Positions 540 to 35,504 of a stretch of 64,000 bases of DNA are shown here, piece by piece. The notes beneath the pieces were generated by a model. The model made no database searches. It saw only the letters and a program-made list of their open reading frames with translations, and was not told the DNA's origin. The stretch is from Alphaproteobacteria bacterium (GTDB lineage Bacteria > Pseudomonadota > Alphaproteobacteria > GCA-2746255): the NCBI GenBank assembly GCA_021296325.1, contig JAGWAR010000003.1, forward strand, positions 5,796-69,795. Direction: 5' to 3'. Both the position numbers and the translations under genes were made by a program. Every line of letters starts with the position of its first letter. Position 1 is the stretch's first letter.

Positions 540-864
540 TGCAGACTCCGTCTGTGTGAGTGGGTTTTCCCGTTCACGGGAGAGCCCGGCCCGGCAAGGT
601 GCCCGGGTTCTCCCGCCTTTTCGTTCGGTCGCGGCGAAGGTCGTTCGGCCGGAACCATCGACGATGGGTCTGCTGCCCCCGATGAGTCGTGGCAAAGCGA
701 GAGCGGCCCGCCGAATCCGGCGGTCTCTCTCAATCGAAAGATGTAAGGGTCGTGAAAAATACATTCGCACCGGATTCCCGTTGCCGACAACATCCTTCAA
801 ACGAAGCCATGTCACCGTCTACGGAAATCCGCACCCGTCGGGGTAACCCCGCCCAACGGCTGGT

Positions 865-1040
865 GACACTCGACGGTAGGTCTCCTGGCTTGCGGATATA
901 GGCTTTAGCGCGTCCTGCCTTCCCAGTTTCCCAGTGGCTTTTATGGACGCAGCCTCCGCTCACAGTTGCGGGGGCAGCCACGGCATTGGCCGGTTATGGC
1001 CTCACCGTGTTCCCTTGTTATCCCCGAAAACGGGGAACCG
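865..1040 (-). promoter_or_regulatory. Cobalamin (AdoCbl) riboswitch in the 5' leader of the TonB-dependent receptor
   Basis: Minus-strand reads AAGGGAACACGGTGAGGCC...CTGCCCCCGCAACTGTGAGCGG...AGCCACTGGGAA..GGGAAGGC...AGCCAGGAGACCTACC. These are the conserved GGGAA/GGUG, CUGCCCCCGCAACUGU, GCCACUG and B12-box (AGCCAGGAGACCUGCC-like) elements of RF00174. Confidence 0.7.
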
Positions 1041-1087
1041 TCGAAAAGGAGCTTAGCGAATTTCCCGGCACTTCTCAACCAAAGACA

Positions 1088-9983: not shown

Positions 9984-10059
9984 TGGCGACCCCAACGGGA
10001 TTCGAACCCGTGTTGCCACCTTGAAAGAGTGGAGTCCTAGGCCTCTAGACGATGGGGTC
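9984..10059 (-). tRNA. tRNA-Glu (anticodon UUC)
   Basis: Minus strand GACCCCATCGTCTAGAGGCCTAGGACTCCACTCTTTCAAGGTGGCAACACGGGTTCGAATCCCGTTGGGGTCGCCA. Cloverleaf with 7-bp acceptor, TTCGAAT T-loop, anticodon loop CUUUCAA, encoded CCA. Confidence 0.9.
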
Positions 10060-21868: not shown

Positions 21869-22068
21869 GGCTTCGCTTTGCATGCCGCCGACCGGGAATC
21901 CTTTGCCTGAAATCTGGCGGCGGAGTATGCCACGGAAATCCTTACTGTCAACGAAATTTCCTTATATATGAGAGAGATAGTACTGCGGTAATATAGGGTT
22001 CAGGCCCCCGGAACGACCTTGTGCCGGGCCTTCGGTTCGATTATTTCTGTGGCCGGGGAGATTTTTCC

Positions 22069-22470
22069 ATGCGCCGTGGCGGTTTTTTCAAGCTTGGCAG
22101 GACCCTGGCCCTGGCCGCCATGGCCTGGCTTGTCGTCCTGAGCACGGTCCACGTGACTTTGGTGCCAGGCTTTGCCAAGGCGGCCGAGGCGGAAGGCCTG
22201 GCTCTTGCGCTTCAGGAAATCTGCTCCGCCACCGGCCTTCGAAAAAGCAACGACACGCCCTCACCTTCGCCGGCGAAGACAGTTCTGTCGCCCTGCACGC
22301 TTTGCTACGCGCTTGGCCATCTGCCGCTTGGTCTCGCAGGATCCGGCCCGGAAGCAACCTTGCCCTTGGCAAGCGCCGCGCTGCCGACGGCCCGCCTGCA
22401 CCAACGCCCGGCGAACGCCCTGCTTGTCGGTCGACCACCATCCCGCGCGCCGCCTTCTTTGCACGCCTGA
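22069..22470 (+). CDS. Small exported Cys-containing protein (DUF2946-like, uncertain), 133 aa
   Basis: Signal/TM segment LALAAMAWLVVLSTV and a CTLCY motif. Pro/Ala-rich tail. ATG 22069 follows an AT-rich promoter-like stretch (ttatatatgagagagatagtactgcggtaatata). Confidence 0.4.
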   Translation: MRRGGFFKLGRTLALAAMAWLVVLSTVHVTLVPGFAKAAEAEGLALALQEICSATGLRKSNDTPSPSPAKTVLSPCTLCYALGHLPLGLAGSGPEATLPLASAALPTARLHQRPANALLVGRPPSRAPPSLHA

Positions 22471-22542
22471 TCCACGAAAAATTTGGAATCCATTCCGGCC
22501 ACGCCCCGATTGGGCGGCGGCCGTCACAGGAGTTGCAGAGCA

Positions 22543-23604
22543 ATGAGAAGAGCTGCCCTAATCCGGACAGGTGGCCTTGCCCTCGGGCTGATGGCCGGCC
22601 TTGTCACCCATGCCCAGGCCGACACGGCGGCCGCCGTCGAAGCGACGCTGGGCCATAACGGCCTCAACCTTGCCATCAACCAGCGTCCGGACGGGCACGC
22701 GCCCATCTCGGTCATGGGCGATCACCGTCACGGCGAAGGCGAAGTCATGCTTTCCTACCGCTTTATGCACATGAAGATGGAAGGCAACCGGGACGGAACC
22801 GACGACCTTTCGACCCAACAGGTGCTGGCCAATTTTGCCGTCGCGCCGTTACGCATGACGATGGACATGCACATGTTCGGCCTCATGTACGGCGTTAACG
22901 ATGCGATGACGGCCATGGTCATGCTGCCCTATGTCGAAAAATCGATGGACCACGTCACCGGCATGGGCGCGTTCTTCACGACTGAGTCGAAGGGCTTTGG
23001 CGACGTTCGGCTGACCGGCATGGTCCGGCTTTACGAGACCGACCGCCATCGCCTGCACCTGAACGCGGGTGTGAGTCTGCCGACCGGTTCGATCAAGGAA
23101 AAGGACGACACCCCGGCAATGGCAAACGCCCAGCTGCCCTACCCGATGCAAATCGGCTCCGGCACCTACGACCTGCTGCCCGGGCTGATCTACAACGGTT
23201 ATTCGGAAACCTATTCCTGGGGCGCCCAGGTGAGCGGCACCATCCGGCTCGACGAGAACAGCCGGGATTACAGCCTGGGCGACCGGGTCCGGTTTTCGGC
23301 CTGGGGGCAACGCCCCCTCGCCGGCTGGCTGAGCGTGTCCGTGGGTGTCGACTTTCAGGCCTGGGGCGACATCGACGGGGCGGATGCGGCCCTGAACCCC
23401 ATGATGGTGCAGACGGCCGACCCCACCCGCCAGAGCGGCAACCGGACGGATATCACCTTCGGCCTGAACACGATCGTGCGCGAAGGTACGCTGGCTGGAA
23501 ACCGTCTCGCCCTTGAATTCGCGGTGCCGGTCCATCAGGACCTCGATGGACCGCAACTCGAAACCGATTGGACGATCACCTTCGGCTGGCAGCTTGCCTT
23601 CTGA
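22543..23604 (+). CDS. Outer-membrane beta-barrel protein with Met/His-rich N-terminal region (CopB / MetA-pathway transporter-like)
   Basis: RBS ACAGGAG then MRRAALIRTGGLALGLMAGLVTHAQA signal. His/Met motifs (GDHRHGEGEVM, FMHMKMEG, MTMDMHMFGLMYG, KSMDHVTGMG). Alternating amphipathic strands and terminal ..GWQLAF typical of OM barrels. Confidence 0.6.
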   Translation: MRRAALIRTGGLALGLMAGLVTHAQADTAAAVEATLGHNGLNLAINQRPDGHAPISVMGDHRHGEGEVMLSYRFMHMKMEGNRDGTDDLSTQQVLANFAVAPLRMTMDMHMFGLMYGVNDAMTAMVMLPYVEKSMDHVTGMGAFFTTESKGFGDVRLTGMVRLYETDRHRLHLNAGVSLPTGSIKEKDDTPAMANAQLPYPMQIGSGTYDLLPGLIYNGYSETYSWGAQVSGTIRLDENSRDYSLGDRVRFSAWGQRPLAGWLSVSVGVDFQAWGDIDGADAALNPMMVQTADPTRQSGNRTDITFGLNTIVREGTLAGNRLALEFAVPVHQDLDGPQLETDWTITFGWQLAF

Positions 23605-23627
23605 AGAAATTCGGGGCGGGGATCGGC

Positions 23628-23984
23628 CTAGCCGGTCCCCGTTTCCTTCGCAATCCAGTCGAGAAAATCCGGATTGCCCGCCGTCAACGGCCAAGCGACG
23701 ACGCAGGGACAGGTGTAGCTGTGCATTTCCTTCACCCGCCGGATGACGGCGTCGACCTGCGAGCCCTGGGTTTTGGCAATCAGCACCGCTTCGCCTTCGT
23801 CCTTCACTTCCCCTTCCCACCGGTAAAAAGACCGCACCGGCGCGATCACGTTGGCGCAGGCGACCAGCCTTTCCTCGACGAGGGTACGCGCCAGTCCCGC
23901 CGCCTCTTCCGTTGAAGCGGCGGTGATGTAAAGGAAGTGGGGCTTCGCCCCAGCGGCGCTTTCCGCGGCCATTTCATCCCCCAT
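23628..23984 (-). CDS. cutA: Divalent-cation tolerance protein CutA
   Basis: ..HFLYITAASTEEAAGLARTLVEERLVACANVIAPVRSFYRWEGEV..VIRRVKEMHSYTCPCVVAWPL is a CutA1-fold signature. Confidence 0.8.
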   Translation of the reverse strand: MGDEMAAESAAGAKPHFLYITAASTEEAAGLARTLVEERLVACANVIAPVRSFYRWEGEVKDEGEAVLIAKTQGSQVDAVIRRVKEMHSYTCPCVVAWPLTAGNPDFLDWIAKETGTG

Positions 23985-26177: not shown

Positions 26178-26254
26178 TGGTCGGAGCGGCGGGATTTGAA
26201 CCCACGACCCCCACACCCCCAGTGTGATGCGCTACCAGGCTGCGCTACGCTCCG
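26178..26254 (-). tRNA. tRNA-Pro (anticodon probably GGG)
   Basis: Minus strand CGGAGCGTAGCGCAGCCTGGTAGCGCATCACACTGGGGGTGTGGGGGTCGTGGGTTCAAATCCCGCCGCTCCGACCA. 7-bp acceptor CGGAGCG/CGCTCCG, T-loop TTCAAAT, anticodon loop CUGGGGG, encoded CCA. Confidence 0.8.
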
Positions 26255-26315: not shown

Positions 26316-27062
26316 CTAGCTCCCGAGTTTCCGTAGCGTATTCCGCAATTCTTCGAGTTCGCCGAGGACGGCACGAAGTTCCTCGCGTTGCATCGAATTG
26401 GCCCCCGCACGAACGGTCGGCGGCGCGATGTCGCCGGAACGTTTTGCATCTTTCGGGCCGCCATTACGCAACAGTTTCTGCACGCCCATGATCGTATAGC
26501 CCTCCTCGTAAAGGAGGGAACGAATGCGGCGCAGCAGTTCGATGTCTTCCGGTCGATAGTAGCGCCGGCCGCCGCCGCGCTTCAGCGGACTGACCTGTGA
26601 ATACTTGCCTTCCCAGAAACGAAGGACGTGTTGAGGAACGTTCAGTTCGGAAGCAACTTCACTGATCGTGCGGAATGCCGATGCCGACTTGCTGCCTCGA
26701 CGCAAGGGCATAGGATTCAGCGATTCAACCATGAAAACGCCCCTCGAACCTAAACGCTGGAGCCCGGAAAGAGCCTTATTTATCCGATTCTTAAGGACCT
26801 GCGAGGCCCGGAAGACGAGGACCCGGCGCGGCAGAATCGGCACCTCTTCGCCGGTCTTCGGATTGCGCCCGATGCGCTGGCCTTTCTGGCGAACGGAAAA
26901 ACTTCCGAAGGATGAAACTTTGACGGCCTCACCCCGGACAAGCGCGTCCGAAACCAATTTCAATACCGATTCGACAAGTTCCGCCGACTCGTTCCGAGAA
27001 AGACCGATTTCCTGATACACCGCTTCCGTTAAGTGCGCGCGCGTAACTGTGCTTTCGCTCAT
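26316..27062 (-). CDS. ihfA: Integration host factor alpha fused in-frame to a MerR-family HTH regulator (248 aa single frame, no intervening stop)
   Basis: N-terminal 100 aa is IHF-alpha (..[34 protein letters not shown]). It continues without a stop into ..[44 protein letters not shown].. (MerR HTH) and a C-terminal helical region. The junction was translated codon by codon with no TAA/TAG/TGA. Confidence 0.7.
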
Positions 27063-33312: not shown

Positions 33313-33471
33313 CGTTTTCCCCTTGGGTCGTCGTTCTGGGCCGGGCCGATCGGCGCGGCGGAAACACTGCGGGTAGCCAAAAATCGCGCGGAAAATGACA
33401 GAATCAGAGGACCGGTGCAACCCACCTGTCTGCCCTTGACCTTAACCGGGCGAACCCCCACCATGTTCTCA

Positions 33472-35504
<2,033 letters not shown>

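Follow-up and report, generated by a model that had tools for sequence, protein, structure and literature searches.

A 64,000-nucleotide stretch of alphaproteobacterial DNA (contig JAGWAR010000003.1, positions 5,796 to 69,795 of the forward strand; hereafter the window) carries, on its plus strand, a gene for a small cysteine-containing protein followed directly by a gene for a methionine- and histidine-rich outer-membrane beta-barrel. The explanation favoured here, with a probability of roughly 0.55, is that a sensor of the CruR type gates a copper-conducting, methionine-lined outer-membrane channel; copper would relieve a translation arrest and repress the channel, which would serve copper acquisition under scarcity. 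A preliminary description of this DNA had proposed a copper-handling module composed of a small exported cysteine protein, a CopB/PcoB-like barrel and CutA. The link to copper is supported by the type of leader and by the invariant methionine and histidine residues of the barrel, and not by the logic first proposed.

Organization of the two-gene unit

The principal features of the locus are as follows.

22069..22470, plus strand: cruR/cutF-like leader open reading frame (ORF), 133 aa, DUF2946; proposed copper-sensing translation-arrest peptide
22069..22185, plus strand: residues 1-39 of the leader (MRRGGFFKLGR and the hydrophobic LALAAMAWLVVLSTV, then AKA); presumed export signal or membrane anchor at the N-terminus, as judged from the translation
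22294..22305, plus strand: CTLC (CXXC) codons, residues 76-79; proposed copper-binding motif
22444..22455, plus strand: RAPP codons, residues 126-129; putative arrest motif, with four residues left before the stop
22471..22542, plus strand: spacer of 72 nt with a GC-rich hairpin and the AGGAG of the barrel gene; candidate expression platform
22543..23604, plus strand: barrel ORF, 353 aa; Met/His-rich, predicted 12-stranded outer-membrane beta-barrel of the COG4313 fold; proposed copper channel
22684..22743, plus strand: conserved N-terminal segment RPDGHAPISVMGDHRHGEGE of the barrel (residues 48-67), just before strand 1
22744..22959, plus strand: strands 1-3 with the putative methionine ladder (residues 68-139), as judged from face entropy and conservation

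The gene boundaries given in the preliminary description were reproduced. The 133-aa ORF has CTLC as its residues 76-79, the gap to the barrel ORF is 72 nt and contains AGGAG at 22528-22532, and the 353-aa product has a signal-peptide-like N-terminus and ends in ...WQLAF. The AGGAG, as the Shine-Dalgarno sequence of the barrel gene, is located 10 nt 5' of its ATG; GGAG is found 8-11 nt 5' of the leader ATG at 22069.

In the proposed mechanism, the leader CXXC would sense periplasmic copper while the leader is being translated and exported. Copper sensing would change the duration of the ribosome arrest on the C-terminal RAPP, and the arrest duration would set barrel expression in cis, either through opening of the structured spacer and the ribosome-binding site or through protection from Rho-dependent termination. 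The barrel itself would act as a TonB-independent 12-stranded channel, in which strands 1-3 lined with Met and His, together with the N-terminal segment, would pass Cu(I)/Cu(II) across the outer membrane. The copper-off polarity is adopted because of the analogy with CruR (the same Pfam family, the CXXC and RAPP motifs and their spacing): relief of the arrest by copper would switch the channel gene off, and the barrel would be an acquisition channel induced by copper scarcity.

The leader as a probable nascent-chain copper sensor

The DUF2946 family, once without an assigned function, now has characterised members. CruR (Bp2923) of Bordetella pertussis is a DUF2946 member encoded by an upstream ORF. 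Its nascent product senses copper via CXXC, which alters translation arrest at the C-terminal RAPP and so controls the next gene, coding for an outer-membrane copper transporter (PMC9426467). The CXXC (C90/C93) is needed for copper control; RAPP occupies residues 139-142 of 145, with three residues after it, and the CXXC-RAPP spacing of 45 is conserved in the family within 1-2 residues (PMC9426467). In-vitro experiments have demonstrated that the ribosome arrests at RAPP when the first Pro codon occupies the P site; elsewhere in proteomes RAPP is strongly avoided (PMC12992588). Both CruR and CutF sense copper as nascent chains and, by stalling the ribosome, govern the gene that follows (PMC9426467, PMC9973294). 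In Rhodobacter capsulatus, CutF (C69XXXC73 ... GPPPRL) stalls on periplasmic copper and thereby opens a stem-loop over the cutO ribosome-binding site (PMC8456105, PMC9973294). DUF2946 leaders also precede MbnPH-type operons.

The 133-aa protein of the window matches Pfam DUF2946 (PF11162) with 34.7 bits against a cut-off of 23.7, and the match spans positions 1-117 of the 117 in the profile. An identical 133-aa protein is annotated at the National Center for Biotechnology Information (NCBI) and carries PF11162. The NCBI records of both proteins come from an alphaproteobacterial metagenome-assembled genome, where the leader is named 'hypothetical protein' and the barrel 'transporter'; NCBIfam gave no match for either. 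The translation begins with a basic region and a 15-residue hydrophobic stretch. The gap between CTLC and RAPP is 46 residues, four residues follow RAPP, and a semi-conserved cysteine (C52) is present upstream. Among 12 leaders located 5' of barrel homologues, C76, R126, P128 and P129 are invariant and the alanine of RAPP is nearly so. The gene is the first of its same-strand unit, being preceded by the divergent rplM and followed by the barrel gene 72 nt further 3'. In every sequence feature that can be compared, the small protein agrees with the CruR class, to which it is assigned here as a putative member; it is most likely a cis-acting copper sensor rather than a copper carrier or a copper-handling protein.

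The barrel and its methionine/histidine pattern

The AlphaFold2 model of the barrel, built on 25 diverse homologues, reached a predicted local distance difference test score (pLDDT) of 78 and a predicted template modelling score (pTM) of 0.77. Its strand pattern was read as 12 strands, and its best structural matches are 12-stranded barrels, with the N-terminal segment ahead of strand 1. The predicted fold is that of COG4313, the 'phenol/hydrophobic uptake' family, and D154 and P180-T181-G182 are conserved as in COG4313 channels. Against Phenol_MetA_deg (PF13557) the barrel scores 20.8 bits, below the cut-off of 22, while a precomputed PF13557 match is present in many of its homologues. No match to the CopB family (PF05275) was obtained at E<=1, and a search of solved structures with the family profile returned chance matches only (all E>1). 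The preliminary description had set a hydrocarbon or phenol uptake family devoid of any metal link against its copper proposal. One half of this was found, since the barrel has the predicted fold of the phenol/hydrophobic uptake family; the leader and the invariant Met and His residues nevertheless provide a link to metal.

The barrel contains 22 Met and 11 His, with 14 of the Met located within residues 61-150. The preliminary description had likened these motifs to the Met-rich tails of CopB/PcoB. Their enrichment is not due to chance and they are conserved across homologues, but they do not form a tail of this kind; in the predicted barrel they occupy beta-strands 1-3 and the segment directly ahead of strand 1. 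Conservation was followed in the 25 diverse homologues, which represent at least 8 phyla, and in 151 representatives sharing <=50% identity. Among the former, 64 alignment columns are invariant and include eleven Met (M58, M69, M77, M79, M105, M109, M111, M115, M127, M135, M202) and four His (H61, H63, H110, H137). Among the latter, these positions are 68-99% conserved. The Met positions of strands 1-3 are conserved at 73-99%, and position 137 is His in 68% and Met in another 12%. Within the segment RPDGHAPISVMGDHRHGEGE, residues P54, M58, H61 and H63 are invariant and R48, D50, H52, A53 and I55 nearly so; the conserved RPDGHAPISVMGDHRH directly precedes strand 1. The N-terminus of COG4313 channels folds into the lumen at this position (Pput2725, PMC4493636), and by analogy the corresponding segment of the barrel would lie in the lumen, in the plug position.

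The ladder comprises M69, M75, M77, M79, M105, M107, M109, M111, M115, M125, M127, M135 and H137. On strands 1-3 the face formed by these alternate residues has a mean entropy of 0.16, 0.49 and 0.37 bits, respectively; the opposite face is variable and hydrophobic, with 1.49, 1.10 and 1.80 bits. The conserved face of outer-membrane barrels is normally the one turned to the lumen. Because the methionines occupy the conserved face, the ladder probably lines one wall of the lumen.

A word-indexed homologue search, in which 8,000 candidates were scored, yielded at least 3,460 proteins at E<=0.001. Among clusters at 50% identity, the family profile retrieved 1,587 at E<=1e-30 and 4,034 at E<=1e-3. 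The homologues originate from Alpha-, Gamma- and Deltaproteobacteria, Cyanobacteria, Planctomycetota, Verrucomicrobiota, Gemmatimonadota, Nitrospirota and others. Sequence comparison points to a tight and distinct clade, and the barrel appears to be a member of an undescribed family. In the searchable literature, with figure contents and some supplementary tables outside reach, Phenol_MetA_deg, PF13557 and COG4313 were not linked to copper or DUF2946. The cyanobacterial barrels (for example at loci L008, L010, L019, L022, L026, L028) are 430-480 aa long and have no upstream leader; their N-terminal extension of roughly 100-130 residues is poorly conserved.

Recurrence of the leader and barrel pair

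The pairing was followed in 80 species-representative genomes with a barrel homologue, which provided 76 loci with enough upstream sequence. A strict leader was defined as CxxC-N35-55-R[AGS]PP in an ORF ending just 5' of the barrel on the same strand. A loose leader was defined as a Cys motif 28-62 residues before PP or PxP in the last 14 residues, in an ORF ending no more than 650 nt upstream. The strict form was found in 10 of the 80 genomes and the loose form in 25 of the 76 loci; the same test applied elsewhere in the loci predicts 0.027 per locus, or about 2 in total. Leader-like ORFs are thus about 12-fold enriched directly 5' of the barrel. Their hosts include Alphaproteobacteria, Gammaproteobacteria and other Pseudomonadota, Nitrospirales, Thermodesulfobacteriota, Anaerolineae, Spirochaetia, Gemmatimonadota, Myxococcota and others. 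Of the other leaders, two score high enough for DUF2946, two give weak scores and the remainder are too divergent for Pfam, as has likewise been noted for leaders in the CutF literature. No paper describing the pairing of such a leader with this barrel was found in the searchable literature.

Ten genes located 3' of leader and barrel pairs are mutually unrelated (CBS, GST, DAO, PhoX and a kinase being among them). At 23615..23643, directly 3' of the barrel stop, a GC-rich hairpin of -28.9 kcal/mol (z -2.94; 1 of 200 shuffles folds equally well) is followed by UUUCCUU. It looks like a terminator common to the barrel gene and the convergent cutA, and as such would close a two-gene unit. The unrelated 3' genes and this terminator-like hairpin therefore define the unit as the leader and the barrel.

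Several loci depart from this arrangement. In delta-type and Myxococcota loci (L041, L048, L054, L057, L071, L072, L076), the upstream ORFs carry CxCxC (CPCGC, CMCGC, CPCDC) instead of CXXC...RAPP, about 40-50 residues before a C-terminal PDxPxPI/V, and end 150-400 nt before the barrel match at about 5001. These CxCxC...PDxPxPI ORFs may, to judge from their motifs, represent a second class of arrest leader for the same barrel cargo. Nine gammaproteobacterial barrels (L006, L020, L025, L033, L045, L060, L069, L079, L085) are without a leader. Upstream of them, at ~2.9-4.9 kb on the minus strand, lies a pair of divergent ORFs coding for about 420 and about 180 aa. The annotation of this pair in L006 is a PilS-like histidine kinase with six transmembrane segments and a response regulator with HTH_8; matching ORF sizes and positions suggest the same pair in the other loci. 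Control by such a divergently encoded two-component pair would be another way of regulating barrels that have no leader. In L004 (5291-10373), a barrel homologue with 58% identity is located between a di-haem cytochrome c gene and genes for an OEP factor and a three-domain multicopper oxidase; it is the only clear copper-enzyme neighbourhood among the barrel loci surveyed.

Possible relay from ribosome arrest to barrel expression

In the predicted minimum-free-energy fold, the codons after RAPP pair with the Shine-Dalgarno sequence and AUG of the barrel gene; these are exactly the codons that a ribosome would cover if arrested with Pro128 in its P site. Across 16 loci, duplexes between a leader tail and its cognate initiation region average -14.6 kcal/mol vs -11.7 kcal/mol for non-cognate pairs (permutation p 0.00035), and the cognate duplexes are stronger than their dinucleotide shuffles (Stouffer z -4.4). 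The pooled signal derives mainly from four loci (L064, L073, L049, L021). A ribosome-binding-site RNA switch is not claimed for the window, since the pairing failed the shuffle and same-locus decoy controls in the window and its close relatives; the signal is a pooled trend only.

The spacer contains a GC-rich hairpin at about 22496-22523 (-24.2 kcal/mol, z -2.1), which is kept in the window and three syntenic relatives with both-sided changes at 4 pairs. Several alternative spacer pairings involve the Shine-Dalgarno sequence. The relay could consist of ribosome-binding-site unmasking as in CutF and SecM, of Rho-dependent termination as in CruR, or of both.

Comparison with known systems

The CruR-CrtA/BfrG-Bp2921 operon of B. 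pertussis (PMC9426467, PMC12914433) places a leader in control of the next same-strand gene with an outer-membrane, copper-related product, as is proposed here. Its cargo, however, is a 22-stranded TonB-dependent transporter, whereas the cargo here is a 353-aa barrel, predicted to be 12-stranded and TonB-independent; it has a PepSY_TM partner, absent here, and a 162-nt spacer with a Rho-dependent terminator in place of 72 nt with a hairpin. The TonB-dependent transporter type (OprC/CrtA; 22 strands, a plug and roughly 700 aa) was ruled out for the barrel by its 353 aa and its 12-stranded structural matches. CutF-CutO of R. capsulatus (PMC8456105, PMC9973294, bioRxiv 2025.02.05.636593) resembles the proposed unit in combining an exported nascent-chain sensor bearing a C-terminal Pro motif with a short structured spacer before the regulated gene, and its host is also alphaproteobacterial. 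It differs in having CXXXC and GPPPRL where the window has CXXC and RAPP, and in its cargo, a periplasmic multicopper oxidase; copper induces both stalling and expression in CutF, while the polarity in the window is assigned by analogy. SecM-secA and other RAPP/RAGP arrest peptides (PMC12992588) share with the proposed sensor the C-terminal RAPP-type motif, the small exported protein and the control of a downstream gene in cis, but sense the activity of the export machinery, whereas sensing of copper via a Cys pair is proposed here.

COG4313/Phenol_MetA_deg channels (Pput2725, PDB 4RL8; SphA, TcpY; PMC4493636) resemble the barrel in their 12 strands, the conserved N-terminal segment before strand 1 and the conserved D and P-T-G residues. 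The barrel nevertheless shares only 12% identity with them, scores below the Pfam threshold and is about 60 residues longer, and its invariant Met/His set is not reported for COG4313. Neither the window nor the surveyed barrel loci contain catabolic neighbours; a leader of the copper-sensing type is found instead. PcoB/CopB (PDB 7PGE; PF05275) are likewise small, copper-linked, Met/His-rich outer-membrane barrels. In PcoB, the part rich in Met and His is reported to be a disordered N-terminal region (PMC12509749), whereas here these residues are in the barrel strands; moreover, the window barrel has neither a PF05275 match nor an adjacent pcoA/copA oxidase gene among the ORFs of 19-27 kb. Membership of CopB/PcoB was rejected on the missing PF05275 match and on the structural comparison, in which PcoB is only a distant match and not the closest relative.

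OprC/NosA TonB-dependent copper transporters offer an outer-membrane route for ionic copper, as is proposed for the barrel. In OprC the binding site is built from Met, His and Cys. This transporter is energised and 22-stranded and has a plug domain, whereas the barrel would be small and of a passive type.

Weighing of the explanations

Several observations count against a CruR-type sensor that controls a copper acquisition channel. The polarity was taken from CruR by analogy only, and CutF, of the same superfamily, works in the opposite way. Characterised COG4313 channels are thought to carry hydrophobic molecules (PMC4493636), and the position of the methionine ladder on the lumen wall was derived from conservation patterns and not from coordinates. 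In the window, the duplex of leader tail and initiation region is no better than shuffles (z +0.49) and is matched by 58% of same-locus decoy windows; nor does the fold reach significance (z -0.63). In CruR, Rho-dependent termination takes place in a longer spacer, of 162 nt against 72 nt here. About two-thirds of the barrel homologues have no such leader. No recurrent copper gene was found among 100 ORFs flanking the first 25 barrel loci (~196 ORFs of other loci being unscanned); this census comprised two-component systems, glutathione S-transferases (GSTs) and others.

With CutF-like polarity, copper would prolong stalling and an excess of it would induce the barrel, which would then be a defence channel for the exit or equilibration of periplasmic Cu(I) in the manner of PcoB/CopB. 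CutF, of the DUF2946-like superfamily, does induce cutO with copper by melting the stem-loop over its ribosome-binding site, and the window spacer is short and structured rather than long and Rho-dependent. The one homologue adjoining OEP and multicopper oxidase genes has a neighbourhood typical for detoxification, and the Met/His richness recalls CopB/PcoB. The leader, however, has CXXC and RAPP at CruR-like spacing, where CutF has CXXXC and GPPP, and it reaches the threshold of DUF2946, the CXXC family of CruR. The barrel has no CopB Pfam match and little structural similarity to PcoB, and no copA, multicopper oxidase or cus genes adjoin it in the window. This opposite polarity is considered unlikely, but is the main rival. 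An improbable alternative is that the barrel imports an organic or hydrophobic ligand, perhaps a copper-chelating metabolite (chalkophore or metallophore), and that the leader merely ties its expression to the copper status. The fold and the D154/P180-T181-G182 residues do resemble those of COG4313 channels, for which hydrophobic substrates and a lateral exit were proposed, and the MbnPH-type operons headed by DUF2946 leaders agree with it. Catabolic and metallophore-biosynthesis genes are nevertheless missing from the surveyed neighbourhoods; the invariant Met and His, typical soft-metal ligands, separate the barrel family from generic COG4313, and the family profile retrieves only about 4,000 clusters, a distinct clade.

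A module that would both sense and conduct some other metal, thiophilic or borderline (Ag, Hg, Zn, Ni or Co), is more doubtful still. Copper specificity is doubted for some CutF-like leaders, which precede HupE/UreJ or czc genes, but these have His-only motifs or no Pro motif, while the window leader has a Cys pair and RAPP, and a Met-dominated cargo favours Cu(I)/Ag(I). Fortuitous adjacency of an ordinary exported protein and an independently regulated barrel has very little probability. It would agree with the many leaderless homologues and the non-significant RNA pairing in the window; it is contradicted by the enrichment of leader-like ORFs directly 5' of the barrel across distant phyla, by the position and spacing of RAPP, which fit a known arrest peptide, and by the strong avoidance of RAPP in other proteins. 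A CruR-type sensor gating a copper channel under scarcity is preferred over these alternatives.

Neighbouring genes and other features of the window

The unit is flanked by the following features.

21884..22068, plus strand: upstream intergenic region, common to the divergent rplM-rpsI operon
23615..23643, plus strand: terminator-like GC-rich hairpin followed by UUUCCUU, directly 3' of the barrel stop
23628..23984, minus strand: cutA, convergent with the barrel gene (PF03091 match, 2.7e-35)

The convergent cutA described earlier is indeed present, but its proposed role as a part of the module did not hold. Apart from the window, cutA adjoins the barrel in just five syntenic loci (L001-L003, L087, L089), which come from at most four close relatives; it is absent from the 82 other loci compared (L004-L086 minus L005). 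The window and these relatives share the whole argC-rpsI-rplM ... cutA-heptosyltransferase synteny. CutA as a partner was rejected on this co-occurrence, its adjacency being lineage synteny. The reported lack of copA and multicopper oxidase genes was confirmed among the ORFs of 19-27 kb, the part of the window to which this screen was confined.

The promoter of the module must lie within 21884-22068. The AT-rich stretch suggested earlier as a promoter gave no plus-strand match in a scan with the sigma-70 consensus. The sole good match in this region is on the minus strand (TTGACA-16-CATACT, 21951..21924) and faces rplM; a GGAAAT-N16-ATTTCC repeat at 21934-21961 overlaps its -35 box. A CueR box, for which the preliminary description had advised a search, was not found in 21884-22068 as the dyad CCTTCC-N7-GGAAGG with up to 3 mismatches; CopR/CusR-type boxes were not searched. 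In the presumed 5' leader, just 5' of the cruR-like start, a small hairpin is followed by a T-rich run (CGGGCCTTCGGTTCG ATTATTTCTG; 22023-22048, plus strand). Terminator-like hits in this region number 5 vs 2.1 +/- 1.5 expected and may be due to chance. An Rfam scan detected no RNA family in or near the locus.

Elsewhere in the window, ihfA reads in frame into the following MerR-family gene and forms a 248-aa ORF (26316-27062, minus strand). In the relative L001 the two genes are separate, with a stop after ...KALSGG; a genuine fusion or an error of sequencing or assembly could each account for the long ORF. Its MerR part has no Cys and hence is not a metal sensor of the CueR type. The window also contains a cobalamin riboswitch (858-1057, minus strand, 118 bits), a thiamine pyrophosphate (TPP) riboswitch (33469-33576, plus strand, 55.4 bits, just above the gathering score), tRNA-Glu(UUC) (9984-10059, minus strand) and tRNA-Pro(GGG) (26178-26254, minus strand).

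Implications for copper passage across the outer membrane

The regulatory device is already known from papers of 2022-2025, and the leader is a putative added member of it. The cargo, a small TonB-independent barrel of the predicted COG4313 fold with an invariant Met/His lining, appears to be undescribed. A wider generalisation is offered tentatively, its chances being put somewhat below even: the barrel may found an unrecognised, phylum-spanning class of small TonB-independent outer-membrane copper channels, in which a barrel of the COG4313 fold bears both a methionine ladder and an N-terminal segment of His and Met. Periplasmic copper would set their synthesis co-translationally in a third of the lineages, via Cys...Pro-Pro arrest peptides that include the second type, CxCxC...PDxPxPI, of the Myxococcota and delta-type bacteria.

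The passage of ionic copper across the Gram-negative outer membrane is poorly understood, and the routes named so far are general porins and a few TonB-dependent transporters (PMC12914433). If confirmed, the barrel would be a new kind of outer-membrane copper route, and a dedicated channel of wide distribution, with methionines lining one wall, would be a third route beside these two. Its small size would make it a tractable model for Cu(I) selectivity in beta-barrels. With this pairing, the cargo known for CruR/CutF arrest peptides comes to include a new class of protein and reaches phyla beyond Proteobacteria, and the leader provides an independent functional clue for about 1,600 clusters annotated just as 'transporter' or hypothetical.

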